Notes: generated from the sequence alone by a model not told the origin. DNA of 64,000 nucleotides from Cirrosporium novae-zelandiae (GCA_026023565.1 JAPETS010000011.1:496001-560000); one strand, 5' to 3'. Shown: positions 43,583-64,000, counted from the first letter of the stretch. Program-made: numbers and translations.

Positions 43583-44203
43583 ATGGCCCGAACCTTCCCC
43601 GCCTCCCGCTATGCTGCCTACCTCCGCGGCTACAACACGCAAGACCTCCCCTCCTACTCCCGATTCTACGCCTTCAATATCAAAATAGACTGGTACGGTG
43701 TCCTAGTCGGCGCCATCCCCAGCCGCGAGGATCTGATGCGCTTCTTCGAGAATTTTCATTCCAAAGTCCACGAAACAATCGAACCAACATGGTATTGCTC
43801 AGGTGACGGGATGCTGGCGGTAGAAGCCGTGGTGCAGGTCGAGATTGTGGATGATATGGAGGAACCGTTGATGTTTACGGGGAAGAGATACCAAAAGGGG
43901 GATAGGACAAGCTATAAGCTTTCGTAAGTACTGTCTTCTGGAGCCACAGGCGGAGCTGTGGGTTCGATCAATTTGGGAGTTTTTTTACCTAACTACAGGC
44001 AACCATCTGCTGTGGTGGTGGTTGCGGGGTTTAGTATGCATTATGAATTCAACGAAGATCTCGAGTTCGCAACCCTCCGATTCACGTTCGAATGGCCGCC
44101 TCTCGGAGGCCAGGAACCGCCTTCCGGGGTCAATAGAGGTACCGGTATCTTGATCAAGCCGATTGCGCATTTTGGTTCTGAGGATGTGACACCCACCCCC
44201 TGA
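43583..44203 (+). CDS. SnoaL/NTF2-like fold protein, 2 exons
   Basis: YLRGYNTQD...FYA, SREDLMRFF..FHSKVHETI, LAVEA and MHYEFNED follow a SnoaL-like pattern. Intron starts GTAAGT at 43924. Confidence 0.6.
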
Positions 44204-45079
44204 GGATTAAATATTAGAGGAGAAATTTAAACCTTGCCGAGTAGAGGCTGAGGGAGTGAGTGAGTGAGTGGCTATGAGCGTCATCCAGGATGACAAGGGA
44301 TGGATGAGACTAGGTTACGAGGGGGTACGATTTAAATGCGATGCGACGGACATGGATACCGGAGAATGACAGACGGACGTGTTGTAAACATGATATGATA
44401 TTTACGTCTAACAAGGGTAGTCTAAGTATCGATTTATAAATCTCTCCGACTTGCTAGCCAGCTGGCTAATATATGCATATATATAAAATGACTCTTATGA
44501 TTCAAACTTCAAAGGCACCTACCACTACCATTTTTATTCTCATTCAACTCCGTCTAATATAGATAGTAGGGTTAGGGGACGGTTATCTAGGCGAGAAACA
44601 GAAAAAAAAAAGAAGAAAAAAAGAGAGATCAAATATCCCATCTATCTTCTTTAATAAAACCCTCTTGTTCCTTTTATATCTATCTATATCTATATATAGT
44701 AAGGAAAGGTAAAAGGTAAAAAGATTACCTAGTACCGTATACATATTTTTTTTTAGAATTCGAGGTTTTCAGATATTTAGATATATATCAATTGGTATGC
44801 AACTCAGTGAGTAAAGGTGGGGGGGGGGGTCAAGTTGTGGAATTATGTGGTAAGGCAGTGGTAAGGAGGTAGATAAAGTTTTTTATTTTCTAGGCTCTAG
44901 TCTAAAGGGTATTTATTTTTTATGCGCTGTAGTCTATTCATTTAGCACGTATGACCGTTTACTGTACCCTTACAGTCTGTCTATTCGTAGCATAACATAA
45001 TTATGTATAAATCTACATATAAATATGTAAAGTTGCTTCCCCTCACCCCTCTCCAACCCACAAACCCACAAACCCACAA

Positions 45080-45084
45080 TATAA
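45080..45084 (+). promoter_or_regulatory. TATA-like element at -29 of the 5S rRNA gene
   Basis: TATAA lies 29 nt upstream of the 5S start, the position known for dispersed Neurospora-type 5S genes. Confidence 0.6.
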
Positions 45085-45108
45085 CCCACCCTTCCATTTC
45101 ATTTTCCC

Positions 45109-45170
45109 ACATACGACCACAGGCTCAAGAGAACTGGGCATCCCGTCCGCTCTGCCATACATAAACTTGA
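45109..45170 (+). rRNA. 5S rRNA gene, 5' half only (~62 nt), interrupted
   Basis: ACATACGACCACAGGCTCAAGAGAACTGGGCATCCCGTCCGCTCTGCCATACATAAACTTGA matches the ascomycete 5S 5' half (ACATACGACCA..., CCCGTCCGCTC), with TCAAG/CTTGA helix pairing. The expected 3' half (..TTAGTA..GCGAATCC..GTATGT) does not follow. Confidence 0.9.
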
Positions 45171-46317
45171 TTATGATTAAGAGATTCCCTTCTCAATACC
45201 TTCTCACCCTGCCTTATCAGGTTCCTCACCCTCGCCGCCTGAGCGGTCATTTCAATCGCGCGATAACGGTGAACCGAAAGGAACAAAGTGGGGTAGAATA
45301 TCTGTACGGCCGTAAACGAAAGCCGTAACTGGAGTATGTATTACGTCTGACATTTTACCCTGTATACATGGTCAGTATTTTTCAATAATACATAGACAGT
45401 ATCCCTGAACTTCGTAATTTTTAGCGAGAAGCTCGGCGCGCTTATCTTATCTCCTAAACTAGCTTCCAATGTCACAAACTGGAGGGTCAATTGGCCCAAT
45501 GATAAGATCTTGAGGCTCAGTATGATTTAGCAAAGAAGCTGATACCTGACGTTTTCTGAAAATGGTTATCTGACCTATTATAATCCTTACATGACACCCC
45601 TACAAGCGTGTGACATTGGAAGCCAGTTTAGGAGATTGTCTGGGGAGGGTTTAAAACTAATGGAAGTTCTCCCTATTTGTTGTGGTAGCTTGCGGCCCAA
45701 TTCACTTCGCCAACAAAGCGCTAAGCCGCTGCTCCACTGATTGAGTTTATACCAAAAGTTTATGTAGTAACTGTCACCAAGCTTCATACAATGTTGCAGG
45801 AACCTAATGAAAATGAGCTTCCTTCAATAAAATTTGATTTGATCGCGGAAATCCAATGTTTAACCCGCTGCAAGATGAAGAAGCTACTGTACTCCTCAGA
45901 CCTTGCAGGACTGGTTGACACAAGCTGGGCGGAAAACCCCTGCACCAATATGCAAAGGAGAAAATTGAAAAGGATTTTTCTACACAGGGATTGGTAAGAC
46001 ATAATTTCAAACAGGGCGGAAGATACTGAGACGTTGAGGCTCTGGCGATATAAATCCTGGCAAACACTTAATCTAGGCAACAAGGCAACCAAATTAATTA
46101 CGTCCGCCTCGCCAACAAGTGTTGATACTTAAAGACATTATGCATTAGCCTTTAAATATTTTATGAGATTCGTAGCCATCCCATTCGCATCTATGGTTGA
46201 AATCAGAAAGGATTAGGTATACGGCTTCCTCTAACATCGATACTCTTCCGCCGTAACCCACTAACGGCTTAAGAACCAGCAGTGATTCCGAGTATCAAGT
46301 GGATTTCCTATCTCAAA

Positions 46318-48058
46318 ATGAGTTCACACCAAGCAACTGCTGGCTCAGAACGAAGTGCAGAAGTAGAGGGTGCTTTTGCTTCTGAACAGCTCAAACCAGA
46401 CACCAGACTATCTCATCGTTCCACGGTCGAATCTCAAAACATTGATCGAGATCAATCGTCGGACTCCGACCCAGGTATTCCAGACCTAGTGCTTCAACTT
46501 GAAACTAGATCTGTCACTCAAGAACAGCTTATAAATTATATTCGAAGTAAGTTTATCTATTTAATCATGACTTCTACCTTTCTAATCAGAGGAAGGTATA
46601 TATAAAAAATTGGTACCGGTCGAAAAACAGTGCATTGATAGCGACGAAGCACAAACCAAAGCTTTTCAAGCAAACGAACCTGGACCTAACAAGGAGCAAT
46701 GGCATACACAAATAATTCTTCACCGCACGCTCCTTTATCAATATTACGACTTCTATTTTAGTTCTCAGAATCCTTCTGTCGATCCTATTTTGCGCAAATT
46801 AGCTGCGAACCACGCTATGCTAATTAGAATGTGGCGTCATGGAATATATTCCTTTTTAGAAGTTTTACGCCATAGATTACCCGAGTCTTACGATCATATG
46901 GTGTTTTTTATTTTCTCGGCCTATTCGATTATAACTGTTCTATATGAAGCCGTACCTACGTATGAAAACATATGGATGGAATGGCTCGGGGATTTGGGAC
47001 GTTATCGTATGGCTATTGAAGATAGTGATGTCCGAGAACACAAAAAATGGACGAAAATTTCACGTTTTTGGTATTCGAAGATTATTGGTAAAAATCCAAA
47101 TATTGGTCGGTTATATCATCATCTTGCTATTCTTGCGCGACCTATGGCTTTACAACAATTTTACCTTTATACTCGATCTCTAACTTGCGTCCAACCATTC
47201 CAAGCCACTCGAGAAAACATCCTCACTCTACTGAACCCAATACTGGAGTCCGACGGATCTTCTTGCAGACTGCAGGCCCTCGAAAGAACCTTTATTCGAA
47301 CTCATGCTATTATATTTACAGAAAGATCTAACGATGTTTATACGGACTCTACCTTCAAGCTTATGCAATTGTTTGATGATTATATCATCGACGTTACCGG
47401 TGAATTCAAAGAGCAAATGACTTGGATTGCTATTGCAAACCATGCTGCATTTTTTGAGTATGGGGTTTCGAATGCTATATTCACACAAGCTTATAATCAG
47501 CGTCTCAGTGACCAGCCAACTCAAAAATCCTTTGAAACCATTGGACGCGCTTCCATCCTGAGCTTTGGTATTCTTTCTCGCATTTTACTGTATTTGGATG
47601 ATAGCAATGTCCATGATTATTTGCATATCACCCTAGTATTCCTTGACAGTCTTACTTTGGTTGAAAAGGCTATGAAATTGATTGAATCATATATTCCCTG
47701 GGATGCTTTGGCATCTTACCTAAATACGTTACTAATTTCAGAAGAAGCGGTTTTCACTCGTGTTCAGAAACTCGATTCCCTCTTTCCGCAAAGCGAAGGG
47801 CCATTACCTGAGGACTATATTATTCGAGGTCAAATATGGGCACAATGGTATTTCCCGGACAACTGGTTCGACAAAAATGGAAAACGCCAAACCGAAGAAA
47901 CAGAATCTCGTCTGGAACGAATTATGTATTTGGCTTTCCGTATTGCCTCTTTCAAGAAGTGGTTGATATACGATAATACTTCGCAAAGATTCTCGGTATC
48001 TCACGGGACTGACCAACTGGCAGACGAACTAGGCAATCTAAAGATCACCACGAGCTAA
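46318..48058 (+). CDS. Est1/SMG5-7-type DNA/RNA-binding (TPR-like) domain protein, 2 exons
   Basis: LHRTLLYQYYDF, RMWRHGIYSFLEVLRHRLP, WMEWLGDLGRYRMAIE, GRLYHHLAILARP and PLPEDYIIRGQIW. Intron ~46547-46589. Confidence 0.8.
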
Positions 48059-48077
48059 GCTTATTTGTTATGTCAGC

Positions 48078-48188
48078 GTGTCTGGGAGTCAGTGAGCCTG
48101 TGTGTCTGGGAGTCAGTAAGCCTATGTGTCTGGGAGTCAGTAAACCTGTGTGTCTGGGAGTCAGTGAGCCTGTGTGTCTGAGAGTCAG
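48078..48188. repeat. 24-bp minisatellite, ~4.6 copies (GTGTCTGGGAGTCAGTGAGCCTGT)
   Basis: Units start at 48078, 48102, 48126, 48150 and 48174. Confidence 0.92.
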
Positions 48189-48410
48189 GACCAATGAACC
48201 AGTAGATCGCATTGGAGCAATGGCAGTGGAGCGATTCAAATAATCTAGGCGATCTATATAGTAGATAGGATCCTTATCCCATATTTCGCAAGCAACAGAT
48301 CGAATTTTGATTCAATAAACGTCTTCTTGTCACCCTATTTAATCCGCAACCCTTTCATAATAGTGCTATTGGAGCAGATAAATCTCGAATATTAATTGAT
48401 CAGCTATCAA

Positions 48411-51329
48411 TTATCTAAATATTGGCCATCGAGCTCTACCTGTTGGAACCCCGCCTTGGCGACCGCCTTGTTCATCATTTACTTGAACCCTGCCTTGGCG
48501 ACCGCTTTGTTCATTATTTATTTGAGCCCTATCTCGATAGCCATTTTGCTCAACTTGACCATTTCTTTGAGGTCCACTTTCAGTATTTAACGATAATCCA
48601 TTTATCCGGCCTGTCAGCTCGTCTATCCTTTCGTTCAACTTTGTATACATCAACTCTAGCTTCGCTCCCATATGACTTACGGTGCGAACTATATGATTGT
48701 TTTCTGCATCTAGCGCTCCGCGAGTCCGTGATCGAACTGTAGTGATTGGAGGCGGTTCCAATATTCCTTGATCTCTTCGGTAAAGCTTTTCCTGCGTTGT
48801 TGCACGAGCATAAATCATAGCATCTACATGAGTCTTTGGCATCCGCATTAGTCGATAAAGACCAGTGCGGGTTTCTATTGACCACATATGATTATCTTTC
48901 CATTGCACGATAATATAAGTGGAAGGGAAACTTGTGGTTCTACGAGGATCCAGCCTAGCAAGAGGCTCGGATTCTTCGTAGGGTTGCACTTTCCAACCTA
49001 TACCAACGAAACACTCGATCTGACTTTCGTCATAAAGGAATCCATTTTCGTCGCCTGGCTGATTAATATCAAATCCGATTCCGTTGTGTATTCTGACTTG
49101 AGCTCGTCTGTCCATCGATGGAATATGGTTATCAGCTCTTTCTTCGTACACATGATGAGAGCCTGGCTCCACGCGATAGGTAGGATATTCCTCTCCATAT
49201 TCTACCAAGACTTGTCTACCCACATTTCCTACTTTTCTCCAACCTAAAACCTGGCCACTCCCATGAGTAAAGAGATCTGTTGATAGAACTCCACGAAGTG
49301 CTTCGGGGGTATGATCATTTTGAGGGATATGGTAAGGGTCATCCCAACCATAATCATCGAGGTTGTACTCCATAGCTTCTTCAGTATGAGGCCCACCAAG
49401 TTGATTTCCCTGGGCTTGATTTCCCCAGGCTCCCTGAGCTTGATTTCTCTGAGCCCGGGTTCCCCAGGTTTCCTGAGCTTCCTGAGCTTCCTGAGCTTCC
49501 TGAGCTTCCTGAGCTTCCTGAGCTTCCTGAGCTTCCTGAGCTTCCTGAGCTTCCTGAGCTTCCTGAGCTTCATGACCTTCATGAGCTCCCTGAGCTTCCT
49601 GAGCTTCTTGGTCCTCTTGGTCCTCTTGGTCCTCTTGGTCCTCTTGGTCCTCTTGGTCCTCTTGGTCCTCTTGGTCCTCTTGGTCCTTTTGGTCCTCCTG
49701 CACTCCTAGACCTTGGGTCTGTTTAGATAAATGTTGATTCTCTTTATTCTTTTCATAGCTAATCATTTGCCTAGCGGCTTTGACCATATCGTCCATATTA
49801 ACTGTTAGCACATCGTTGCATCCCAAGACTTGAACCATTTTCTGTATATCATTTTCAAAATCTTTCCATTCGTCTGCATCTATTGGATCCGCTTTTCCCG
49901 AATCAAAAGCCGCTTGCTGCCTAATAAACCCCAAATATTTTTCACGCCATTGATAGAATTCCTGAAAATCGAGTGTGTTTTTTGATTCGTCGTAATGAAA
50001 GTCATTATTTAAGTCTCGGATTCTTTGATTATGTAGGTTAAGAGTATCAAGCAAACATTGTGCTGTTCGAGGAAAATCTAAATCATGTGGTATATCCCAA
50101 AGTAGCGAAAAAACAAGCTCGAGATCTACTACCCGTATTTCTTTTAAACAATGATAATATTCAGGATTATTATCATTTACCGGAAGCTTTCCTTTTCCCT
50201 TTCCAATATTTAAAAGATCGGAAAATAAACCACGAGAAGTTTTTCTATTTTCAGAAATATCTTGGTCTGTTTGATCATCTTCAGTGAAATGAACACGAGG
50301 GATCGTATTTGGAGAAATATATTGAGATTGTGAAGGCCCTGCAGAAGGGCTAGGAGATTGCGGTGTTTGAAAATCAGTTGTAGATTGACGAAAAGAGCTA
50401 CTGTGTTGGGGAGTGGCAGATGAAAGGGGTTTTTGAGAGAGAGGAATGCCGGATTGATGAGATTGGGGAGCAGTGGGTTTGTAAATTTTGTATCGAGACT
50501 CCTGAGGGCGAGTGGATTGACGGAGAGGAGGAAGCCGAGATTTGGAAGGAGTGGTCGGTTCGCGGAGAGGAAGAAGCTGGGATTCGATAGGAGTAGATTG
50601 ACGAGATTTCTGTGAAATAAACCGAGAAGTAGCTGGTTGACGAACAGGAGGGTGCTGAGATTCGGAAGGAGCGGTCGATTGGCGGAGATTCGGAAGCCGA
50701 GATTCGGAAGGAGTAGATTGACGTGATTGCTGCGAAATAAATCGAGAGGCAGCTGGCTGACGGAGAGGAGGGTGCCGAGGTTCAGAAGGAGTCGTCGATT
50801 GGCGGAGACTCGGAAGCCGAGATTCGGAAGGAGTAGATTGACGTGATTGCTGCGAAATAAATCGAGAGGCAGCTGGCTGACGGAGAGGAGGGTGCCGAGG
50901 TTCAGAAGGAGTCGTCGATTGGCGGAGACTCGGAAGCCGAGATTCGGAAGGAGTAGATTGACGTGATTGCTGCGAAATAAATCGAGAGGCAGCTGGCTGA
51001 CGGAGAGGAGGGGGCTGAGATTCAGAAGGAGTAGATTGACGTGATTGCTGTGAAATAAATCGAGAGGTAGCTGGTTGACGAACAGGAGGGTGCTGAGATT
51101 CGGAAGGAGTGGTCGATTGGCGGAGACTCGGAAGCCGAGATTCGGAAGGAGTGGCTGATTGGCGGAGATTCGGAAGCCGAGGTTCAGCAGAAGTGGATTG
51201 ACGTAATTGCTGCGAAATAAATCGAGGGGCAGCTGGCTGAGATTCTTGACGTTGCAGAAGTCGATCACCGGCTCTCGTTCGAGGGTGATAACGATGAGGT
51301 GGAGGTTCTTTTTTCGTTCTTGGTGGCAT
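48411..51329 (-). CDS. 972-aa hypothetical protein with N-terminal S/Q/P/R repeats, central (EDQ)n(EAQ)n tract and globular C-terminal region
   Basis: One uninterrupted 2.9 kb ORF with good ATG context (AAAATG). No family recognised. Confidence 0.75.
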   Translation of the reverse strand: MPPRTKKEPPPHRYHPRTRAGDRLLQRQESQPAAPRFISQQLRQSTSAEPRLPNLRQSATPSESRLPSLRQSTTPSESQHPPVRQPATSRFISQQSRQSTPSESQPPPLRQPAASRFISQQSRQSTPSESRLPSLRQSTTPSEPRHPPLRQPAASRFISQQSRQSTPSESRLPSLRQSTTPSEPRHPPLRQPAASRFISQQSRQSTPSESRLPNLRQSTAPSESQHPPVRQPATSRFISQKSRQSTPIESQLLPLREPTTPSKSRLPPLRQSTRPQESRYKIYKPTAPQSHQSGIPLSQKPLSSATPQHSSSFRQSTTDFQTPQSPSPSAGPSQSQYISPNTIPRVHFTEDDQTDQDISENRKTSRGLFSDLLNIGKGKGKLPVNDNNPEYYHCLKEIRVVDLELVFSLLWDIPHDLDFPRTAQCLLDTLNLHNQRIRDLNNDFHYDESKNTLDFQEFYQWREKYLGFIRQQAAFDSGKADPIDADEWKDFENDIQKMVQVLGCNDVLTVNMDDMVKAARQMISYEKNKENQHLSKQTQGLGVQEDQKDQEDQEDQEDQEDQEDQEDQEDQEDQEAQEAQGAHEGHEAQEAQEAQEAQEAQEAQEAQEAQEAQEAQEAQETWGTRAQRNQAQGAWGNQAQGNQLGGPHTEEAMEYNLDDYGWDDPYHIPQNDHTPEALRGVLSTDLFTHGSGQVLGWRKVGNVGRQVLVEYGEEYPTYRVEPGSHHVYEERADNHIPSMDRRAQVRIHNGIGFDINQPGDENGFLYDESQIECFVGIGWKVQPYEESEPLARLDPRRTTSFPSTYIIVQWKDNHMWSIETRTGLYRLMRMPKTHVDAMIYARATTQEKLYRRDQGILEPPPITTVRSRTRGALDAENNHIVRTVSHMGAKLELMYTKLNERIDELTGRINGLSLNTESGPQRNGQVEQNGYRDRAQINNEQSGRQGRVQVNDEQGGRQGGVPTGRARWPIFR
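49470..49700 (-). repeat. Two adjacent 9-bp coding minisatellites encoding (EDQ)n and (EAQ)n
   Basis: GTCCTCTTG and TCCTGAGCT tandem arrays on the + strand. Confidence 0.93.
50560..51240 (-). repeat. 120-bp (40-aa) coding tandem repeat with ~13-14-aa sub-units
   Basis: The 60-mers at 50701, 50821 and 50941 are identical, as are those at 50761 and 50881. Confidence 0.93.
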
Positions 51330-51456
51330 TTTGTATAATTAGAAGATTATTATAAACGATATTATAAAATTAAGGTCAAGCTTGCTTATGGTGTTTTTAT
51401 ATTTCTAGATTATTATTATATTTCAGGAAAATAGGTCGTTTCTAGATCAGCGCCAG

Positions 51457-51514
51457 ACTGGGAGCACTGGGAGCACTGGGAGCATTGGGAGCACTGGGAG
51501 CACTGGGAGCACTG
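51457..51514. repeat. 9-bp tandem repeat (ACTGGGAGC) x ~6
   Basis: Directly visible, between two divergent genes. Confidence 0.9.
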
Positions 51515-51602
51515 GAAGACTGGATATCCTTACAGCTAATATTTTGAATATCTGAAGCTTTCATCGCTTTCTTATTTTTTTTTTCAAACTCGACTGGCAA
51601 TA

Positions 51603-52388
51603 ATGCATTACCTCAGTTACATGTTATTCGTGGCTGCTGCTGAGGCTGGCTTAATTGTTGATGGTGATGCAAGGTAATATGGATATGATAAATATGTTTT
51701 CTTCAACTGACACAAGTATAGCATCAATGCCCAAATTTCTGGTGTACCAACAAATGTCGAATTCAGTGTGAATATCGATCTCAACACCAAGCAGTCCAAA
51801 GCATATTCTACAACCGCTGGCGGTTCTGGAATCCTCAGTTCTTGGTTCACTGGATCAATCCTAGACCAAAGTCTATTCACTACTACTTCTTCTACCCAGG
51901 TTCGAGTTTTCCCTATTTTAGAAACTTAATTCTATACTAAATGATGGCAGGGCGCCATATCTTCACTTCCGATTTATAAAAGTATATTCTCCAACAATCA
52001 GTCTTCTCTAGTTGCAATGTCAAATTCTATTCAGAGCTCAGGAACTGCCACCACGAAAGACCAAATTGTATCGTCGGGTCGTGGCTATTACTCTACTTAT
52101 AGCCTGGTACCAACCTCTATACCACCAGGCGTTTTCTTTACGGGCCTACCCGCCCAGACTGGAGGAACTTCAGCGTCACTTGATTTAATTATTTCTTCTT
52201 TGCTGAATGCCAATTCTTCAAGTAAAATAACGTATTCGAAACCTACACTTCGGTTCACTCCTGTTGCGACTACCTCGCCGCTGGCCTCGACTCCTGCAAA
52301 TTCTGGAGCTGCATGGTTATTAGCTTCAAAAGGATCATACACATTGGTTATATTGGCAATTTGTTTTTTTAGTTGGACTCTTTTCTAG
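51603..52388 (+). CDS. Secreted Ser/Thr-rich, probably GPI-anchored surface protein, ~3 exons
   Basis: Signal-like MHYLSYMLFVAAAEAG, introns starting near 51674 and 51900, an S/T-rich body and C-terminal NSGAA...YTLVILAICFFSWTLF (GPI signal-like). Confidence 0.6.
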
Positions 52389-53249
52389 GATTCTTTAGGT
52401 ATATAGTAACCCTCTTCTACGGATGATTATTACCTCTGAGAGGTAGCAGAATATCAACAACAATATAGTGATTTACTATATAACAGTCGTAAAGCAAGAA
52501 ATACCTCAGCTTAGAGATAAACCCTAGTATAGAGCTTGATATTTTGAATTATGCGCATCAATTACTATAATAATACTTATAATTACTATGGCAGAGTAGG
52601 TTGTCAACCCTACTTTGCTGCATGTAGTCTCACCCCAAAAAGTGATATTTGTTTTTGTTTGGTTATAAAAGCAAGCGAGCGAGCGAGTTACCAAGATTAT
52701 CGATCCTTTTATTATTCTAGATTGACCAATTACTTAGTTACCAATTGAAACTGTTATCTACGAATTATCTATATTCAGTACGCATGCGAATATCATGAAC
52801 AGAAGCTTTAGTCTACTAGTTGGGCTTTCCCCTATGCCTAAATCTTGAAAGTTCGTACACCCCATGAGCATGCAGACCCGCTCCACCACACTACAATGTA
52901 TAAAATTAAAAAAAATCTTCCAGCAAACGTTTTGGAATATATTGTACTCTATATACAGTAAGCAGGAAATCTTATATTCAGTTTCCCGTTTATTTTGCCT
53001 ACTGAAAGTCCTGGTCGCATGTTTGAGTGTGCACTCGCTTAATTCTTCAATGTCGTGCAATTCACCCTCGGGCGCTTCGAAAAAGCTAAACTCACCCCAT
53101 CACCCGAATTAATTTTAGAGACCGCAACTGTTGCTTCAATTTGGGGTTAAAACTCCCAGTTGCTATTTCATCTCCTAAATATTTAAATTCCTAATGTACC
53201 AATACCTTCACGTATTAATGCTAGTTTATTACTTTCAAGCTTAGTCAAG

Positions 53250-54032
53250 ATGCATTACTACGCAGAATTACTATTTGCGATTTTTGCAATTTTCAACAGT
53301 ACTCAATGCCACTCTTGGGTAGAAGACCTTTCCGTGATCAACATTGAAGGCGATCTCACGGGTTCCCCTGGATACTCCCGTGGGTATGTGCAGCGGACCT
53401 TAATTTTTGATGATCAAGCTATTCCGAATCCATTATTCAGCGATGACACCATGACTTATTTACTACCTCCAAATGGACGTCCAGGTAATGATTTCCTTCC
53501 TACAGATCTAATTTGTATGTCTAGCCAAGATTCCCGTAACGAGACAGTAAGCAGCCCTATATTGCGAGCCTCCCCAGGTTCTCGAGTCGTCGTACGGTAC
53601 CAAGAAAATGGACATGTTACTTTGCAAACTCCAATAGGAAAACCTCCGAAGGCTGGAAAGACTTTTATATACGGTACAAACGAATCATCCCCATCGGATA
53701 CCTTGCACAAGATTCACAATGTTTGGACACGAGATGGAACAGGTGGTAATGGACGGGGCACACTTTTATCGGAGCAGACTTTTGATGACGGAAGGTGCTA
53801 CGCTGATAACGGTTCTTTTAAGGCGGAGAGGCGAAAAGCTGTTGCAGGATATCCTTCAGACCCAATTCAAGGGGCTAATCTTTGGTGTCGAAATGAGATT
53901 TTGCTCCCGGCTCGTCTTAATCCAGGTAGTATCTACACGGTATATTGGGTGTGGGATTGGCCGACAGTTGCGGATGGAAAGAATGGAAAGAAGGAATTAT
54001 ATACAACATGTATTGACATCGAAATAGTGTGA
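53250..54032 (+). CDS. Secreted protein with N-terminal His after the signal peptide (DUF7492-like, LPMO-like)
   Basis: Signal peptide followed by HSWVE, then YQENGHV, FDDGRCY, YTVYWVWDWP and ELYTTCID. Confidence 0.75.
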   Translation: MHYYAELLFAIFAIFNSTQCHSWVEDLSVINIEGDLTGSPGYSRGYVQRTLIFDDQAIPNPLFSDDTMTYLLPPNGRPGNDFLPTDLICMSSQDSRNETVSSPILRASPGSRVVVRYQENGHVTLQTPIGKPPKAGKTFIYGTNESSPSDTLHKIHNVWTRDGTGGNGRGTLLSEQTFDDGRCYADNGSFKAERRKAVAGYPSDPIQGANLWCRNEILLPARLNPGSIYTVYWVWDWPTVADGKNGKKELYTTCIDIEIV

Positions 54033-54033
54033 C

Positions 54034-54155
54034 TTTGCTCCCAGCTCGTCTTAGTCCTGGTAGCATCTACACGGCCTATTAGGTGTGGGATTGACTGACA
54101 GCTGCGGATAGAAAGAAGGAATTATATACAACATATATCGATATCGACATAGTGT
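54034..54155 (+). repeat. Degenerate tandem duplicate of the last ~130 bp (53900-54030) of the upstream gene
   Basis: Collinear match with a 9-bp gap. Two TGG codons have become TAG and TGA. Confidence 0.9.
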
Positions 54156-54174
54156 TTTTTATCTAAATACTATA

Positions 54175-54630
54175 TCAAAACAGTTTCACTTCGTCTCCTT
54201 CCAGTTCACTAGGCTTGATTCCCCAATACTCCAACATATCCCGTTCTGACATAGCGACTTTCTCCGACAGAGTTTGTAGAGCCCGTTCCAATTGTTGATA
54301 GATATCGATCGTAGTAGCATGAAGATCAAGCAGACCCTGGCGAGTTTCTTTGAAGTAAGAGATTTCCTGTCGAAGGTAACCGTTCTCACGAACAAGCTCT
54401 TCTATCCGCTTAGAATAATCTGGCTGCGGATCACGCTTGGCTTTCTCGACACGGTGTCGTAGAATCTCTAACCCAGAGGATGTCCCTCCGTGGCGTGCGA
54501 TGCGATGATCAAGGGAAGTGACTTCTGCTGGTGTTCCCAAAGCCCGTCTATCTTGTGGACGAGGATTGCTTGAGAGTGCTGGCAAAGATATTTTCCGGCG
54601 AGGGCTCCCATGATGAGGAGATTGATCCAT
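54175..54630 (-). CDS. Hypothetical coiled-coil protein
   Basis: ORF from MDQSPHHGSPRRK with heptads RIEELVRENGYLRQEI. Divergent from the kinase-like gene. Confidence 0.6.
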   Translation of the reverse strand: MDQSPHHGSPRRKISLPALSSNPRPQDRRALGTPAEVTSLDHRIARHGGTSSGLEILRHRVEKAKRDPQPDYSKRIEELVRENGYLRQEISYFKETRQGLLDLHATTIDIYQQLERALQTLSEKVAMSERDMLEYWGIKPSELEGDEVKLF

Positions 54631-54853
54631 TAATTTGGTATAAGATCTATTAATGTTGAGATTTAAAGGTTTGATATGCTCGTGATGCTTGTAGTCCATT
54701 GTGATGATGCAAATAAGACATAGTACCATTGTTATATATGCACCCGTTATCGGCTCGCTGAGCCGATTTGGGAGCTACAGGTTCCATAAATATTGTCAGG
54801 CAAATTCTATCTACTTAGATGTTATCTTCAATTTCCGACCGATATTGTCAATT

Positions 54854-55951
54854 ATGGAAGAAAATTCTTTACAACGAACCGCAACTCGATTTCCTCGCAG
54901 GGAAGGGGGATCCTTAAGGGAATATACTATTACACCCTCTCCACCAGATCGAAAACGCAAGTTCCCCGATCAAAGTACACCGCGACCCCCACGGCTTCCT
55001 TTGGGCATTCATACAACCTCTTCTTTTACCACTAAAACGCCAACCAGCTTTGCTCATACTAGTAATCCTTGGAATGAGTATCAAGCCTTTATCAAAGAAG
55101 ATATGGCTGGAGATGCCATCATTGCCTATGAAAAAAACCCTAGTTTCAAAGTGGTGGTGATAAAGGAAAGAAAGTTGAAAAACCCTCAGTCCATAAAAAA
55201 TCTTCATCGTGTCTTTCATACAAATATTGTTGCCTTGCTGCATTATTATCAAAATAATGATAGCATATTCTTCATTTATGAAGTTACCAATGTTTCCTTG
55301 GCACATTTGGTGGCCTCGTCCTGTGGCAAGCTAGAGGATTATGAAATTGCCGCCTTCTGCAAAGAGGTCAAACTCTCAGAACTCCTTTGATTCAAGCAGC
55401 TTAATTTATTAGGTACTCGAGGGTCTAAACTATATCCATCGAGTAATCAAAATAGCACACGAGACAATAAATTGCGATAACATTCTTCTCACAAGAGATG
55501 GGACGGTTAAAATTGGTATGAGAGCCCGCTTAGTTTCCTTTCTCGGTTGCTAATACAAACCAGCCAATATCGGTGACAGCATGTTGGATGATTCTGAGGG
55601 ACCATTAGAAGCTCGACAATGGCAAGATATCCAAGCAGTTGGCTATCTTATGACAGCTGTGATGGAACCTGGAACTAGCTTTGCTAAACCTAATACTATA
55701 GAGTTACAATTCCCCGAAAAATGGAAGCCATATGTGTTGCAATTTTTGCAAAAAACAACTTCAAAAAATCTACAAAACCTCTTACAAGTAAATATTCCGA
55801 GACGTGATTTGCCTACAGCTGCTGATGCTCACAGGACGATTTTTTAAGACTTTCTCCGGGCTCTGGTTGCTTGATTCCTCATGTTTGGATTGCTGAGAGG
55901 ACTGTTTACAAAGAGTGGGATCTGTGTAAAGTTCAGGAAATATCTGTGTAG
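54854..55951 (+). CDS. Protein kinase-like (probable pseudokinase), 4 exons
   Basis: VVVIKE, HTNIVALL, FFIYE, IAAFCKE|VLEGLNYIH, AHETINCDNILLTRDGTVKI|ANIG and DIQAVGYLM. TAG at 55949-55951. Confidence 0.78.
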
Positions 55952-56016
55952 CATTGCGACTTACCAGAGTCGTTAATATCAAAAAAAAGTAAATAGCAGA
56001 AACAAAATAACAATGA

Positions 56017-56484
56017 TTACGCTCTGTAATGCTTCCGCTTCCTAGCACGACCTTCTTCCTTTCGTGTCCTTCTGCAATCTATTTCTGTTTCGTCCTCCTC
56101 CTTGATCATAAAAATATTCATTCCATCGTCTCTCTCGGTCTTCACCGTGGAAATATTCCGCATACCTTGAATTGTCTGCTCAAGGGTTGCAATGCGTTCG
56201 TCTTTAGCCTTCACAGCAGCTTGCTCATCGGCTAAATGTTCGACCATGTCATCAAAATCGAGTTTGCGTCTCTGGTTGTCCATTTCAATACTCATCTGAA
56301 GATCCTCAAGCGCGTATTTCCGTTGTTCAACCTCGACCATTAGCTCGGCAAGATTTCGACATTTGCTTGCAGTCGCAGGAGATGTGGAAGGATTCGGTAG
56401 GAGATCAATAATACGGTTCAAAATTGGCCAGACACTGTCAAGCTTCCTTTGAGCGTCTTTGTATCGTTCTTCTTGAACATGCAA
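56017..56484 (-). CDS. Hypothetical coiled-coil protein (5' end uncertain)
   Basis: 155-aa helical ORF with a basic C-terminal tail (RARKRKH). Confidence 0.5.
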   Translation of the reverse strand: MHVQEERYKDAQRKLDSVWPILNRIIDLLPNPSTSPATASKCRNLAELMVEVEQRKYALEDLQMSIEMDNQRRKLDFDDMVEHLADEQAAVKAKDERIATLEQTIQGMRNISTVKTERDDGMNIFMIKEEDETEIDCRRTRKEEGRARKRKHYRA

Positions 56485-57269
56485 AGCTTGGCGAACCTCT
56501 CGTAGTTGCTGTCGCTCCTCTAGAAGGTCGCTCTCATATTTGGTTCGAGTGGCTTCTGATTCTGAATAAAGGTACTGTAATTGTGCGTACTGAGCCTGCA
56601 GTTCACACAGTGCACCTTTGCTATTGTTTATATCGACCTGAACTTGCTGCCAGCTATAGCCAATCTGAAGTATATGCTGCTCTAGAGAATGCGCGTATCT
56701 CTGAGATGCATGTTCTCGGTCGAAACATTCTTTGATTAACTCTACGTCAGACTTTTGACGGCAAGGAGGCGGAAGTGGCGCTGGGGGCGGTGGATGCGGC
56801 GGTTTTGGCTGCAGCGGTCGGCACTGTATAGTAAATATCTGAGATTGTATAATGATTTTTTATTTGCGTACCTGTCTGAGTCTGTCTCCCTGGTTAAACA
56901 TAGTTATAGTATTGTGGCGGACGTTGGTCTCAGAAACGATCAGTCTTGATCTTACCTATTTTATAAAGAGAATGCTAGTCTTATTAACCAGTTTTTTTTT
57001 ATTATTATTCTAAGTCGCGCGATAGATCTACAAATAGAAATAGAGATTGGCGCCAGTTGAGAGAATAGGCAGTTCTGAAATTTTCTTATTCTATCGCTTG
57101 GCCGATTATTCACAGGTCCATGAGCTATAGCAGAAGCAAGTAGCCCCGCTATCATTTGTGCAAGCAAATCACGCTTCCCCGCCAGATGCTGGTCATAACT
57201 TCGCCTGCATGAGTCAGTGTGGGCTAAGACACAATCGTATGCGCCGTGCTTACTCGGATGAAGGGATTT

Positions 57270-57488
57270 TCATGGCACTTGTCCTCGGTTGACAAGTTCC
57301 TTCCATTTAGAGGTAATAGAGTCATAGGTTCGGGAACGATCAGCAGGGACATTCTTGTTGAATAAAGTACAAAGTTCATTCCAAGACATGAATGGTTGCT
57401 GGCTGCGTAAGGTTTTGAGAAGTTCCATTTCTTCATTTGACCAGCGAGACCAGAAGCGGCACAGTTCTTCTTGCTTGTTGGATGACAT
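57270..57488 (-). CDS. Small Myb/SANT-like protein
   Basis: RWSNEEMELLKTLR...SWNELCTLFN...RTYDSITSKW shows the three-Trp Myb helix-turn-helix spacing. Confidence 0.7.
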   Translation of the reverse strand: MSSNKQEELCRFWSRWSNEEMELLKTLRSQQPFMSWNELCTLFNKNVPADRSRTYDSITSKWKELVNRGQVP

Positions 57489-57967
57489 TGCTCCGTTGGT
57501 AAAATTATCAAAGACAGAAATAGCACGGGATAGAAGGAGGGTTGAAAATAATAATGTAAGGAGTGAATTCGCAATCAAGACATGCTGAAAATATGTATAT
57601 TTTTCTTTGCCGCATGGACACATGATCGGTATAAGATGTGATGTGATATTAATGACTTTAAAGTTGGTAGATGATAGGAGAGGTTGCCGCTCCCGGGTGA
57701 AGACTGGGGTCTGCATGCGCGTAGCTTAGATGGGTGACCTGCCTAAGGAGCCTAAAACCGGGGATCCGGATGCAGCTAAATTTTAACGTCGAAGCGCAAG
57801 AAGAGCCTCAGTGAAGTCAAAAATAATGGAGCGTTTGTAACCAATTATGGGAGTCTAGGTAAACAGGCCATCCCGCAACATGATAAAAGTACAGTCCTTT
57901 TCCGCGAACAATCTACGATCAACTTCAAAGAAACCCCAACTTTCATTTTCTCTTTTTTTGATTCAGA

Positions 57968-58273
57968 ATGGATGTAGCGAAGCCAATGACAGACGAAGAA
58001 TGGGACAGCTTGCTCGAAGAATTGTGTAACGATGAGGCGATGGACGACATGAATGCGATCGACTTCAATCCCGATTTCGATTTCGGAAATGCCGAGCCCC
58101 TCTCTGACAGCGATTTCCAGGAGTATCAGCCGATGGGTGATTATCTATTCGAACAAACTGCCGAGCTTGATAACACGAATGCTGTGCCGCAACTAGTCCC
58201 AGATAACCTCGCTCAACAAGGCCCTTCATTGGAGGAGGTATTCGCAGCCGTCGAAGGATTGCAGAAACAGTGA
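57968..58273 (+). CDS. Hypothetical acidic protein (first exon; may continue after an intron)
   Basis: D/E-rich 101-aa ORF ending at a likely GTGAGC donor. Confidence 0.45.
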   Translation: MDVAKPMTDEEWDSLLEELCNDEAMDDMNAIDFNPDFDFGNAEPLSDSDFQEYQPMGDYLFEQTAELDNTNAVPQLVPDNLAQQGPSLEEVFAAVEGLQKQ

Positions 58274-58614
58274 GCTTAACTATTCCCATTAAACCGCAGC
58301 CGTTAACTGTGTCTAGAATCGAAACGCTATCAAGGTTCGGAAAGAAATCCCCCCTATAGGAACAGAGTGCTGTGGATTAACAAGACTAGGAAAATCGATA
58401 GAGCGTGGGAATATCTTGAAGAGCTGCAACCGTGGACTTCGAACATTAGTAGTGATATCGATAATTTGAGTCATAGGATTGGGAAGGGCCTGAACCAATA
58501 GAGTAGATAGGTGCATCCGGTCTGAGCAGGCTCTCAACGGAATGGAGGGTTATTTAAATAGAGTACAATCTTACAGAGAATCTTTGCAAACAACCTTCTT
58601 TAATACTTTCAAAA

Positions 58615-58926
58615 ATGCCTAGTAACAGTCCATGGTCCAAAAACGAGAAAGCAATTCTGATATATTTCGCGTCTCGGGGTGTACATCATCAAGCATGCGC
58701 CGACCTAATCAACCATAAATGCAATTCGGTGCGAAGCGTAAGCGGAGCACGTGACCAAATCAAGAAAATCCGGAAAGAACATCCGGAACTCCGCTACGAG
58801 GATACCAATGAATGGAATATCTGCGCTGTCGATGGCTGGCTGGAAGCCCAGAACATCCCAAATCTCCCTGGCCTTGTTATGCTTTGGAAGGAGGAGGAAG
58901 AGTTGGTTAGCAAGGTAAAAATCTAA
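58615..58926 (+). CDS. Small Myb/SANT-like HTH protein
   Basis: PWSKNEKAILIYF...ACADLI...RSVSGARDQIKKIR. A short extra exon may follow AAG|GTAAAA. Confidence 0.55.
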   Translation: MPSNSPWSKNEKAILIYFASRGVHHQACADLINHKCNSVRSVSGARDQIKKIRKEHPELRYEDTNEWNICAVDGWLEAQNIPNLPGLVMLWKEEEELVSKVKI

Positions 58927-59223
58927 TTTATTTCCGCACACATGGTTCTTACCAATTCAAATTTAGTATCAGCCTCTGAATATAATCTTACCAAACCTCT
59001 TCTACCCATCAATTATTCCCCATCTATCTTACGGGCAGCCTTAAGAAACCTTATTTCTTCCTAGTTGTTGTTATGTTGGCTTATGTTTGCGGCGTTACAG
59101 TTGAGTTGATGTTCATGGATGGACTTTCAAGGAAGGAATTTCTTTTTAATTGTTGGCACTATATATGTACTTCATAACAAATTACTACTTTATAGGCAAA
59201 ATGCATCTAAAGTTCAGTTCCCC

Positions 59224-62200
59224 TTAGACTGGTTTCCTGCGAACATCGTGAGATGAACTTCCTTTTCGCTTTTTTATAGGCGGCCCGGAAACAGCTGATC
59301 TACCAGCATAGCAGATAAATGTTTGATATTTTCTATGATCAGCATATCCAAAATGGCAGTCCAGCTGCTGCTGCTTGACAAACCAAGCCAATGTTTGGGG
59401 GAAGCCGCTTATTTTGCGACGCGTCTGCTTCCCAAGTTTCATGTATATGGTGATAATATCGTTTGGGTGTCGTACGCAAAATTGAACTTCTCTGTGATAC
59501 ATGTGACATACCATGCAGATATACTGGCCCACGTCACAAAGGATTTCACTGTCAGTTGTAAACTGTAAATCTCGTGTACACAGCTTGTGGAGTGCTTCCA
59601 CAATGGCGGTACCGTTATGACGGCACCTAATAGTCCCGTAACAGCGATAGACTCCGAACTCATAGCGTGGCAGGGTTGATAATTCGAAAAAGAAAGATGA
59701 AATTAATAGAGCCGTAGCTGCTCCTATTCGACCCTGGGTACCCTCTGGTTGTAGATGTACGCTCCGCCGTAGTTTATCCATGCCATCGACATCATCCATG
59801 GTTGATTGATTTGCTTGTAATAATATGTTGAACCGAAAGTAATCGGAACGCGCGTTTTCATCCAAACCATTCATTAGCTGGCGCCAAGTCTCCTCACCAT
59901 CCGTTGATGACATAAACGAACGGTAAATTCGGAGGAGGAAGCCGTCTTTAAAGACGTTGCGGAAATGAGGAGCATTTGGAGACTTAGGAAATTGTTCGGT
60001 TCCGGTACCAAGCGATACAACAACATCAGGACCGCGGTTTGAAGGCCATATTTGTCGACTTTCCCAAAGAGCGAGGTTGACGGGATTGTTATATTTCAGA
60101 CCACCATCTTGAAAAGCTCCGATGGCAGCTATATGAGCTGGTTGAAAGAGACTGTCTCAAGATTAGATAGGAAATATAGTAAAAAGAAAAAAAACCTCAC
60201 GATGGTGCTGCCGATGTTGCTCGAGCACTTAATTATATTAGTCACCTTTAATTATGCTCTTAGGTGTAACTTACGCCTCCCAGAGAAAAGGTTCATTTTC
60301 CACCTCGCTTGACCTTAAATGCTTGTACCCTAATCTTCAGTTAGCATCAGACAACCTAAGGGCGAATGGTGCTCTACCGCAATCTTTACTCCTTACTCCA
60401 ACTCCATTATAATTAGAGAATAGAAATGGGGACGCATCTGAGATCGATGAAGTAGTTACCGCGACTTTGACTCCCGAAGACCCAGAATTGACGGTGTCGA
60501 ATACTCGTTGAGTAGACCCAAAGGTATGTTGCAGCAATGTCTCGTAGTCTTTGGCATTGTATTTTCCATCGGAAAAGTAACATGTCAGCAGTTTTCGTAA
60601 ACGACCAAAAATCGTATGTTGGCTATTCTGCGACGTGAAGAATGTCTTGACGAGAATATCAAAAATTTTGCCACATTTGTCAATATCCCAACGACAGAGA
60701 AACAGGCATAATATAATCAGACCCCCTAGATATATCAGCGAAGGTCACCAACTACATCAGTTTTCATACCCGAGCTAGTACCGAAAGCCATATCAAAGAA
60801 GTCCTGCAGGGGGCAATCTGGGCCAATGGTTTCTTGGAGCAATTTGATGGACTCGAGAGGGATCACTCCACGGGAACCCCCTCCATCGATGGCCAAGATA
60901 CGAACCCCCCCAGTAGGGGGTTTGAGACGTGCAATGAGGGATCCTTTCGAAACGCATAGAATGCAGAAATCAATTTTATAGTGATATTCGAAACCGGCAA
61001 TTTGTTTGCCAAAAATTCGAACGCAGGTGTCACAGATCGAATGTCCACAGCTAAGAACATGTTCTGGACACCGACGAAGACAATACAAGCATGTTCTGTT
61101 CGATTTGATTTGCACCCATTGAGCACAATGAATTCGGGAGTTTTCCATGTGTAGTCGATATGTAACTATCTGATTTGCCGTGAAAGCTTCGAATAGGTAT
61201 TGGAGATAGACTTTGATGCGATGACACCCAGCATCGGCGAACTGTTGGCCATGGCCTGACAAGGCCTGCAGGCAAGAATCCTTGTAAAGCTTATCGAATA
61301 TAATGTGGACTGGGAAGCCTGAACATGTTAGATGCGACGGTACATATCGAAGAATGTACCTACAATGCATTCCAGGAGGATACATATCCATCAAGATACT
61401 AGATGCAATAAAAGAAGTGATGCTTTCTATAGAGAACCTGCGTTCCAACGTAAGGCGAAAAAAAACGGCCAGATGGTCTTGATAATCAGGAAGAATCATA
61501 TTACTTTCCCGTGTAGCATGAATAAAACTGAACGGTTCAACTAGCGTGCTGGCACAGTGCTGCAAAGCCAGGGTAAAAAATGCTTCCAAATGAACGGCAG
61601 AAAACTGACAGCGACTGGCTGCGCGTATCGCCTGCATCTCATCGGAATGTCTAACAAGTGCTTGTTTGAGACGGAGATGTCGTGCCATAGGAGAGAGATG
61701 GTGGCCAGCAAGGCGAATGAACGAAACAGAGGAGAAAGTCTCCGTAAACATTTGGAATCTCCCTTCCAGGTAATCCTTTTCAAACAAACCAAACGGACTT
61801 CCACTGTCATATTTTGAGGATACAATTACCAAACGAGGCCGAATTTGTTTAGGAAGATCCGAGCTTGCATTGATGTTGATCCAAGATAGTAGCCGTGTTG
61901 AAACATGTTCAAGGTCGTCAAAATCATCGGCAAATACGACGACGATATCACAGAAAGGGTATATCAATCGAGTAAAAAGAAGATCTAGAATTTGAGGGAC
62001 TGGGTCGCATGGCCAGCATGTAGGATACTCAAAGGTTTCATGACAGTCAACAAAATGAGATGGGTTAAGTTTGGATTGAAAAGGGTCGCTATCCGCAAAA
62101 TAGATGGGATGCCCGGAGGATATAGTGTTTGTGTCCACTCGAAGGTTGCAGATTCCATTGCTTTTGTTCCTTTTAATATTGTTTTTGGAGAATAATTCTT

Positions 62201-62369
62201 TGATCGCTAAATCTTTGGCCTGTCGTCCAAGAAAGAATTGAAGGCTTGGATATTGCTCGGAAGGGTTAGTCAGCTCCGCCACAATCGTTTTCATTCGTTT
62301 CTCGTCGCGAAGGCATATCTGTTGCCGAACTGCAAGTTGCAACCAGGCAACATGCTCGCAGACAGGCAT
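59224..62369 (-). CDS. Patatin-like phospholipase with long N-terminal region and RING-like Cys/His cluster, multi-exon
   Basis: ILAIDGGGSRG, FDMAFGTSSG (GxSxG), ARATSAAP, FQDGGLKYNNP (~60085-60115), VVSLGTG and CLYCLRRCPEHVLSCGHSICDTC. Likely start MPVCEHVAWL. Confidence 0.9.
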
Positions 62370-62576
62370 AATGTGTCGATTAAATTGTTTGTGGCCGATG
62401 GGTAAAGAATAATCTGGAATTACTTCAGCATTTATGGATCTGGAAGTTGCTAAATTTAACATCTGGTTGCTCTGGCAGAGCCGTTTCCGACTCCAAGGGA
62501 GCTTCGGTTTTGAAGTCATTTTTAGTTGACACGTTTCAACATAATATCTCAATTTGGGTGAGTTCAGCACATCACT

Positions 62577-64000
62577 ATGGATGACATTTGCAATGAAAGC
62601 CCTATTGACGAAGGGGTTTTCAATGATAGGTATAGTAAATGGTGTGGTAGCGCTAAAGTTGACCTTAGATTTCTAGCATATACCGAAGCCAAGCATGATG
62701 CGCGCTGGATCGATGAGAAGAATGTGGAAAGACTGATACAAATATTTCATCTCGAAGGCTGTCACCGACTGGACTTGGAAAACCATGTCCCAGTTTTAAT
62801 TAGCGAAGAACAGTTACACCAAGCTCTCTCTCGAGCCCATCTAGCCCGCCAAGACCTGTTGAACTTGAACGAGTTCCCATTCATTACTTTCGAAGACGAT
62901 ATCCGTCTTATTTGTATTCATGGAAAACACCGTCTGATTGCCGCCGATAAATTTCTTTGCCCAAGCGAGAAATGGTGGGTTGTCGATTTGTATATTGATG
63001 GTAATGTTCTCTGGTATATATGATGAGTAGAGTGAATAATTAATTATTACTAGGGTTGTTACCACAAACTGTTCGTGACATAGCTGAAGAATATGCCAAC
63101 TCAAAAAACTTTTGCGATGGGGATATATTTCGGAACATTCGCCATCATCAGAGGAATGATAATACCGCGCAAGCAACCAAATGGTTAGCAAGATTATCGG
63201 AAGGCAAAAGACAAGATCTGAAGAGACTGAGGAAAGCAGACGATCTTACAGAGTTGCGCTTGGCCTTCGATAAACTGTTACCTTTTACTGGGCTTTGGCC
63301 TGCTCTTCAGATTGGCACTTTTCACCGCCTCTTAGCTCTGAAATGCCCCGAGGTAAGCATCTCATTCATGAACTACTACCGATCCTAACATGATTTGAAG
63401 GAGCTGTGCCACTACCTGGAAGCAGTTTTCCAGACGTGGGATATTATATTCTTCCACGACGAAAGCTTGAGACCTTTGCTTGATGCAGGGACCGTGTCAA
63501 GTTTGCAAATGAGATGGCCAAAATATTCTCTTGATGATCGCATTCATATTGAAAGCTTAATGCAAGATAGACGCATTTTTCCGGCCATTACTTCAAGGTT
63601 CCTGCGATGCCGAATCTTAGGTCAGTTGCAAAACATACGTTACCGTATACTTAGTCTTTATACATTTTTGGAAGATACAAAATATCTGGAACCTGCGGCT
63701 TTTGCAATGAAAAGGCTGTTGCCTCCAAAGTTCAAAGGCTCAGTCCGAAGCCAGATGCGGATGTGTTATACCGGAAGGAACCAATCCAATGGTAAGCTGG
63801 AATGCCAGGTTTCAGAGTACGATTTCCAAGAGCAAAACATCAATGGACTGGAAGGGATCCAGATCGATCTACGAACCGACCAACTTTTTCTCTATAGTTT
63901 TCGTCATTTTCCTGAAATGAGTGGTATCAATCCCCGGAAAGACAACGGGAAACCCAAACCGCCACCACAGACCATCTGTGAAGAATCGGTAGTGGGGTTA
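62577..64000 (+). CDS. DUF3723-family protein (partial, runs off the window)
   Basis: KNVERLIQIFHLEGCHRLD, CIHGKHRLIAA, WWVVDLY, EEYANSKNFCDGDIFRNI, FDKLLPFTGLW, LKCPE|EL, SLYTFLEDTKYLEP and RHFPEM. Confidence 0.85.

Follow-up and report, generated by a model that had tools for sequence, protein, structure and literature searches.

Why does a 5S ribosomal RNA (rRNA) gene in the genome of the fungus Cirrosporium novae-zelandiae stop halfway through its coding region, and where does the DNA that takes its place come from? We addressed this question in a stretch of 64,000 nucleotides (nt), one strand of GCA_026023565.1 JAPETS010000011.1:496001-560000 (hereafter, the window, numbered from its first base), in which the 5S gene breaks off at 45170 and is followed by 18.8 kb of other DNA up to the window's end. 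A reading made from the bare sequence (the sequence-only reading) had proposed that the break is one boundary of a Starship, which PMC9156397 defines as a region bounded by target-site duplications with a gene for a DUF3435 tyrosine recombinase, the captain, at its 5' end. Starships carry large gene blocks from place to place in a fungal genome and from one genome to another, and one specialist strategy known among them is to insert into 5S genes. We give even weight to the proposal that 45170/45171 is the junction between a host 5S gene and the end of a Starship whose captain would lie beyond the window, and we consider a Starship origin probable when degraded elements are counted as well. 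By published definitions, the locus is at present Starship-like, with a boundary on one side.

The sequence immediately upstream of the break is the 5' half of a 5S rRNA gene on the plus strand. The truncated mode of Infernal works only at the ends of a stretch, and hence the stretch was cut at 45172, whereupon the Rfam model RF00001 matched 45109-45172 at 19.0 bits (E 0.059), covering model positions 1-64 of 120 with the match flagged as cut at its 3' end. At the gathering score of this model (38 bits), no 5S match was obtained in the whole window, and a scan of 701 nt returned no 5S at E-values up to 10. The feature at 45109-45170 is a gene fragment and not a gene, as a full-length match at the gathering score is not reached. 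Its last bases are ...CATAAACTTGA at 45170, approximately model position 62, and direct reading shows that the bases past this point are unrelated to 5S. When the whole window was searched with a 13-nt motif from the 5S 3' half, every match had three or more mismatches (21 matches versus 15.4 expected by chance). Fungal 5S genes carry a TATA box near -29, and a TATAA box is read at this place in front of the truncated copy. The truncation at approximately nt 62 and the upstream TATAA, both put forward in the sequence-only reading, are upheld by these results.

Public contigs aligned to 36001-56000 came from the window's own organism and from two other organisms of the same study, the latter compared at 80% likeness. 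Contigs of the two other organisms match only 45102/45112 to 45153/45166 (8 + 8 among the pieces listed), and their loose ends behind 45156-45168 differ from the window and resemble each other, as would those of a complete 5S. Because these contigs cover next to nothing but the 5S, they are uninformative on synteny or on an empty site. Only one public run, possibly of the source sample itself, contains the stretch. Among contigs of the window's own organism, the summed depth is 36,096 at 45125 versus approximately 349 in the left flank, a value that is a sum over contigs rather than a copy number and that fits a 5S family of many copies. No difference between the 5S half and the organism's many other 5S copies was found among the matches listed. 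The interrupted copy cannot yield a functional 5S rRNA; many other 5S copies remain.

The statement in the sequence-only reading that some Starships target 5S rDNA agrees with PMC11162782, in the accessible parts of which 5S rDNA accounts for 23% of 222 curated Starship insertion sites, no fewer than five separate 5S sites are distinguished, and Enterprise, Arwing, and Voyager are the families that target them. The starfish tables of that paper list the direct repeats aagccaca (aspasp9_tyr632), aagccacacg (aspacu4_tyr352), and ttaagccacac (aspjen1_tyr1572), and the captains of all three elements are assigned to fam06, a label shared with the Enterprise captain. In the Rfam alignment, the window's ...UAAACUUGA aligns to the model positions of ...UAAGcgcc(c), which is where the fam06 repeats fall. 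The 5S identity of the window ends 0-2 bases from the end of a documented Starship repeat. The junction is located inside the 5S coding region, at a recurrent Starship repeat site.

The genes to the right of the break provide a second line of evidence. An alignment of the window's DUF3723 protein with six database homologues led to 80 metagenome loci, each with up to 10 kb on either side. In the window, the gene next upstream of DUF3723 is the patatin gene, on the opposite strand, and 21 of the 80 loci have a patatin homologue in the same position and orientation. The head-to-head pair has a short intergenic region, as for example at L003:7668-9776(-) / 9929-11596(+). When open reading frames (ORFs) of the window of at least 60 amino acids (aa) were compared with the 80 loci by tblastn (E < 1e-6), matches were obtained for 17 of 107 ORFs right of 45170 versus 1 of 250 left of it, the latter a P450. 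Those on the right include an EST1-like gene with homologues within 10 kb of DUF3723 in five loci (L015:13134-15038, L051, L073, L062, and L079), the ORF at 54178-54774 (five loci, up to 49% identity), the two kinase-like ORFs within 54695-55844 (12 and 19 loci), the ORF at 56020-56859 (five loci), and the Myb-like ORF at 57273-57725 (two loci). Since matches recur on the right and do not on the left, the DNA to the right is part of a gene set that accompanies DUF3723, whereas the DNA to the left is not. Gene-like ORFs on the left end at 44200 and recurring genes on the right begin at 46318; a boundary must lie in the 2.1 kb between them, and the 5S break is inside this interval.

These two coincidences bear on an alternative, namely that the 5S is an ordinary truncated pseudogene, or was broken in some other way, and is by chance at the edge of a Starship-like cluster whose limits are elsewhere. 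Filamentous fungi commonly contain dispersed 5S pseudogenes, what may be the decayed start of another 5S is present 8.4 kb leftward, accessory genes of the NOD-like receptor (NLR) type are also found left of the break, the DNA at 28-44 kb is like the right side in its 4-mers, and no second junction was seen. A random break, however, would need both coincidences at once: to end 0-2 bases from the end of a documented Starship repeat site and to fall inside the only 2.1-kb gap between non-recurring and recurring genes. We consider this explanation doubtful.

The metagenome loci also indicate where a captain might be expected. Among the 14 patatin-paired loci with a full 10-kb downstream flank, four (L005, L015, L051, and L073) have a detectable captain, which is always downstream of DUF3723, on the opposite strand, and 7-12 kb from the DUF3723 start. 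The order in L005 is ferric reductase, SRF-type gene, patatin(-), DUF3723(+), ankyrin, SIR2, and DUF3435(-) at 20001-21788, and that in L015 is patatin(-), DUF3723(+), EST1-like(+), and DUF3435(-) from 20716 down to 17200. L015, L051, and L073 are 90-96% identical over approximately 20.9 kb and then continue into three unrelated flanks, with similarity lost beyond approximately L015:20945, L051:21000, and L073:21000. In all three, the first exon of the captain is approximately 250-350 bp inside the element end. One element with three different flanks indicates that the L015-type module is carried by an element that moves and is laid out like a canonical Starship, for which PMC9156397 describes an inward-facing captain as the terminal gene on one side. 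The L015 captain is whole in reading-frame pieces and those of L051 and L073 are fragmented; judging from their sequences, the three loci appear to represent one family at different stages of decay.

No DUF3435 gene was detected in the window by Pfam (192 stop-to-stop ORFs), by a local hidden Markov model (HMM) built from 23 captain proteins and applied to all 359 ORFs of at least 60 aa, or by tblastn, which bears out the claim that none follows the junction. Likewise, tblastn revealed no captain remnant in the 1.4 kb beside the junction. Since related captains are downstream of DUF3723 and on the opposite strand, the window's captain is expected beyond base 64000. Counting from the DUF3723 start (62577) and by analogy with the four loci, we predict a captain on the minus strand at approximately 70-74 kb in window coordinates, with the element end at approximately 73.5 kb or a little beyond and a total length of approximately 28-30 kb.

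The sequence of events that we propose is as follows. A captain encoded at the far end would recognise the 5S segment at approximately model positions 55-62, and the element would integrate site-specifically into the 5S coding region at this segment, where the window reads AAACTTGA. This string is the positional counterpart of the Enterprise-family aagccaca repeat. By integrating, the element would split the 5S gene, with a few bases duplicated or shared to give a direct repeat, such that the promoter-bearing 5' half would stay at 45109-45170 and the 3' half would follow the captain end, preceded by the short direct repeat. The window would then show the captain-distal end and approximately 18.8 kb of the element, comprising a non-coding terminal region with a nested miniature inverted-repeat transposable element (MITE), an EST1-like paralogue, a repeat-rich ORF, a DUF7492 gene, small conserved genes, and the patatin-DUF3723 pair. 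Such an element may be mobile in its own right, as is its L015-type relative.

Several observations weigh against the proposed junction. None of the defining features was seen, be it the captain, a second junction at which a direct repeat precedes the 5S 3' half, or an empty site. The right-hand DNA had been described as being of different texture, and this claim fails: neither guanine-cytosine (GC) content, the 4-mer profile, nor indices of repeat-induced point mutation (RIP) show a step at 45170. No 5S pieces were found in the 80 loci by blastn-short with the window's 5S half, a motif search gave 32 matches of which none was 5S-like, and seven related loci had no 5S matches at the Rfam gathering score. 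The absence of recognisable 5S from the 80 loci and from the L015-type flanks implies that 5S targeting is not common to the nearest relatives found. No ferric reductase gene was detected in the right-hand 18.8 kb in Pfam ORF scans. The orientation is also a minority one: in the supplement of PMC11162782, aagccac occurs 38 times versus three times for gtggctt, the captain being mostly beside the 5S 5' half, and a captain-distal end at the 5S 5' half is, on this material, the rarer arrangement at this site. A protein search with a piece of the L015 captain returned 23 proteins, none of them named as being from Cirrosporium; this search was word-seeded and covered proteins of 441-2000 aa only, and constitutes weak evidence. 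It returned proteins of sister assemblies with similar locus-tag prefixes. Finally, contigs assembled independently from the sequencing run of this organism are interrupted within the 5S, at 45115, and the link between the left flank and the junction therefore rests on the window's own assembly. The claim of an element boundary with a captain farther to the right thus gains from the coincidence of sites, the one-sided recurrence of genes, and the captain position in four loci, and loses the texture argument, and the arrangement that it implies is the minority one.

The lack of a captain from this organism in the protein search would also be consistent with a degraded Starship, comparable to those termed Derelict, in which an insertion split the 5S, the captain has since been lost or broken, and what remains is fixed cargo. 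Among the three copies of the L015-type element, L051 and L073 have fragmented captains, a MITE has settled in the window's terminal region, and many captain-less regions with Starship cargo are described in the available parts of PMC9156397. That paper defines a Degraded Starship as having at least three hits to conserved genes and no DUF3435; the visible 18.8 kb yields two (DUF3723 and patatin), a count taken on an element cut by the window end. Against degradation, the patatin and DUF3723 genes are intact, the 5S half is like the organism's other 5S copies among the matches listed, and signs of RIP are absent. Intact genes, an unchanged 5S half, and the lack of RIP fit a young or a maintained element equally well. 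We regard a degraded element as possible and rather unlikely.

The contig break at 45115 raises another alternative to a Starship junction, in which the assembly attached the left flank to the 5S half and its element by way of the approximately 62 shared 5S bases, so that the two sides are not neighbors in the genome. The source of the window is a metagenome-assembled genome, and the 5S is a repeat with many copies. However, contig depth is similar across the junction (approximately 349 on the left versus 359-377 on the right), which argues that both sides are from one organism. Moreover, a 5S half joined to the right-hand DNA must still exist in the reads, and the junction between element and 5S would stand even if the left flank were misplaced. 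An erroneous join is, in our estimation, very improbable.

The DNA just right of the break was also considered in light of a retroposon resembling a short interspersed nuclear element (SINE), in which a 5S-derived head and an unrelated tail would have been copied around the genome. At least one slightly different second copy of 45276-45291 is present in the same organism; the variant contig differs by G>A changes at two positions (45276 and 45281) and by 4 extra nt behind 45291, and accounts for a depth of 378.9 of 735.6. However, only one other contig is found there, not many, there is no poly-A or simple-repeat tail, and 18 kb of intact genes follow. The 5S half also stops short of a complete internal control region. 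Such a retroposon is scarcely credible, and even when it is taken together with an assembly join the two account for a small share of the probability. Nested in the terminal region, the MITE-like repeat that follows is small and of high copy number: many contigs of the window's organism with different flanks end at its borders, and their summed depth reaches 21,240 at 45564. The motif CTCACCC was entertained as a terminal repeat shared with published elements, as two copies lie close to the junction on its inner side and published terminal inverted repeats contain it too; its orientation is wrong for an inward-read terminal inverted repeat and the likeness was put down to chance.

Composition provides little to separate the two sides of the junction. 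GC content is 0.41-0.46 on both sides of 45170, and in 4-mer content 28-44 kb is no closer to the left side than to the right. Contig depth of the window's organism is the one visible difference between left and right; it is flat (349-357) over 36-44.6 kb, while several stretches on the right draw extra diverged contigs. Just left of the 5S, 31600-44200 contains a cluster of NLR-type and AAA+ genes whose 4-mers are like the right side as much as like the housekeeping DNA to the left. An accessory region may begin near 28-30 kb.

Two further stretches in the left flank were examined as possible 5S remnants. At 36748-36713 (-), the first 20 bases agree with the 5S half at 18 positions, looser similarity extends to approximately position 38, and a similar CA-rich stretch is found upstream; this possible decayed second 5S start is 8.4 kb to the left of the first 5S and points away from it. 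It was rejected as a remnant because Rfam returned no match even in truncated mode and its alignment score of 44 is within the range of shuffled sequences (mean 35.5, max 65). At 28452-28428 (-), ATAAACTTG is identical to the nine bases that end the 5S half and is followed directly by TAGCTGGGTGAC, which resembles the 5S 3' motif; Rfam gave no match to this stretch either, even in truncated mode, and it was likewise set aside. Speculatively, an 8.2-kb insert that includes the NACHT-TPR-CHAT gene could have split an old 5S, of which these stretches would be the two sides.

Table 1. Features of the window, in order of position, with the basis of each assignment.
Feature	Position	Strand	Basis
NPHP3_N/NACHT + TPR + CHAT gene	31600-36704	+	Pfam
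DUF7025 + AAA lid gene	37651-40136	-	Pfam
DUF7708 + NPHP3_N gene	41020-42911	+	Pfam
TATAA box, left (host-side) flank	45080-45084	+	-29 to -25 of the 5S gene; direct reading
5S rRNA gene, 5' half	45109-45170	+	RF00001 truncated match; contigs of two other organisms
First non-5S bases, proposed terminal non-coding part of the element	45171-45448		Direct reading
MITE-like repeat, 188 bp, 28-nt terminal inverted repeats	45449-45636		Arms 45449-45476 and 45609-45636, 96% complementary
EST1/Ebs1-like DNA/RNA-binding domain gene (P0001), 563 aa, 2 exons	46318-48058	+	PF10373, 2.6e-08
Repeat-rich open frame, 975 aa	48414-51338	-	No Pfam family above threshold
DUF7492 gene	53187-54029	+	PF24320, 4.2e-83
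Unnamed gene, recurs beside DUF3723 + patatin gene in other fungi	54178-54774	-	tblastn; no Pfam family
Weakly kinase-like gene, two ORFs	54695-55844	+	Pkinase, E 0.00085, under cut-off
Coiled-coil ORF	56020-56859	-	Homologues near DUF3723 elsewhere
Weakly Myb-like ORF	57273-57725	-	PF00249, E 0.027, 15 bits, sub-threshold
Unnamed small ORF, recurs near DUF3723	58558-58923	+	tblastn, 5 of 80 loci
Patatin-like phospholipase gene, intact, at least 2 introns	59227-62519	-	Pfam, motifs, tblastn
DUF3723 gene, intact	62577-64000+	+	GT..AG introns 63001-63054, 63352-63400

Protein domains were assigned by a Pfam scan of stop-to-stop ORFs (Table 1). With respect to gene content, the sequence-only reading was right about the patatin and DUF3723 genes, both of which are intact, and less so about Myb/SANT-like genes, for which one weak, sub-threshold hit was obtained. 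In the patatin gene, a Cys-rich, RING-like stretch precedes the patatin domain, both DGGGSRG and GTSSG are present, and the start codon may be the Met at 62519, 62462, or 62369. An intron directly behind the GTSSG nucleophile motif interrupts the domain, which accounts for the weak Pfam scores of the gene. The DUF3723 gene extends approximately 1.1 kb past the window, and its product (P0122) is a continuous protein of 798 aa. It was suspected of being a pseudogene on account of frame changes at 63020/63044 and a stop at 63386, which the two GT..AG introns and the continuous product explain. The two genes are head to head, with 58-208 bp between them according to which patatin start codon is used. 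Of the four kinds of conserved Starship cargo (DUF3723, patatin, ferric reductase, and NLR), the proposed element thus contains two (DUF3723 and patatin), NLR-like genes being found only left of the break.

The EST1-like protein P0001 has a 100% protein match, two paralogues at 63% and 67% in C. novae-zelandiae, and approximately 45% at best in other fungi. Based on these comparisons, it appears to be a shortened paralogue of a conserved fungal gene, of which the organism would have three paralogues. Given its homologues near DUF3723, the EST1-like gene may be a recurrent Starship passenger; a search of literature full text returned nothing that joins Starship, Est1, and DUF3435. The 975-aa open frame contains internal repeats at 50512-51240, the copies of which are 75-95% identical, as well as a stretch rich in His, and none of the 80 DUF3723 loci has a homologue of it.

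If the proposed junction is correct, then a host lineage far from Aspergillus and Macrophomina uses the same 5S position, which bears on whether 5S targeting arose repeatedly. The far end of the element could also be predicted from the junction, which would be known to the base. The gene set around DUF3723 (the head-to-head patatin gene and the kinase-like, Myb-like, and EST1-like genes) offers a lead for recognising Starship-derived regions in which the captain is missing or off the contig. A 5S junction as such is not surprising to a specialist, as 23% of the curated insertion sites in PMC11162782 are already in 5S; the additional value is modest and consists of a distant host lineage, an Enterprise-type 5S site used in reverse orientation, and a broader set of conserved genes around DUF3723.

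We put forward only tentatively the most specific form of the proposal, in which the locus is a compact Starship of approximately 28-30 kb that uses the 5S site of the Aspergillus Enterprise type in the opposite orientation and carries a conserved module wider than the four known auxiliary genes. In this form, use of the site in an isolated ascomycete lineage would represent a further independent origin of 5S targeting. As part of the same tentative joint proposal, this module would comprise the head-to-head patatin-DUF3723 pair together with kinase-like, Myb-like, EST1-like, and unnamed genes found repeatedly near DUF3723 in many lichen- and soil-associated fungi.

Comparison with characterized elements places the window closest to those of Aspergillus in its target site. 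Voyager of Macrophomina phaseolina, the type 5S-targeting Starship, always inserts in 5S rDNA and has DUF3723 and patatin neighbors (mp102_11356 and mp102_11357), according to the accessible parts of PMC9156397. Unlike the window, where the break is at approximately nt 62, this element of approximately 97 kb inserts 20 bp from the 5S 5' start, at the target GCCCTGTATTCT. The L015-type metagenomic Starship shares with the window the head-to-head patatin(-)/DUF3723(+) pair at 40-45% protein identity, the EST1-like gene, and homologues of two further ORFs, those at 56020 and 58558, and its captain is the first gene at one end, facing inward. Its three flanks are not 5S, unlike the window's, and its EST1-like gene is beside DUF3723, whereas that of the window is at the far end.

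The Enterprise-family (fam06) elements of Aspergillus and Osiris of A. fumigatus (PMC12153272) occupy the same place in the 5S coding region as the window break. In the material available from these sources, the Enterprise-family repeats match the last 8-11 bases of the window's 5S half position for position, and the elements carry DUF3723 and patatin cargo, as does the window. Their hosts are Aspergillus, whereas Cirrosporium is a distant host, described in the available text of PMC6712537 as an isolated lineage of Leotiomyceta. Enterprise-family elements on the plus strand, as tabulated, have a sense repeat after which the captain starts 300-630 bp later, next to the 5S 5' half, whereas no captain is encoded in the 18.8 kb that follow the window's junction. 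The arrangement proposed here has a counterpart in Aspergillus. In aspche2_tyr886 (PMC11162782), a 20-nt repeat covers the same 5S stretch and is antisense to the captain (tgtggcttaagtacggctga). This element of approximately 27 kb, which has a very short annotated captain, is the only one with the antisense orientation among those seen, and its captain-distal end abuts the 5S 5' half, as we propose for the window.

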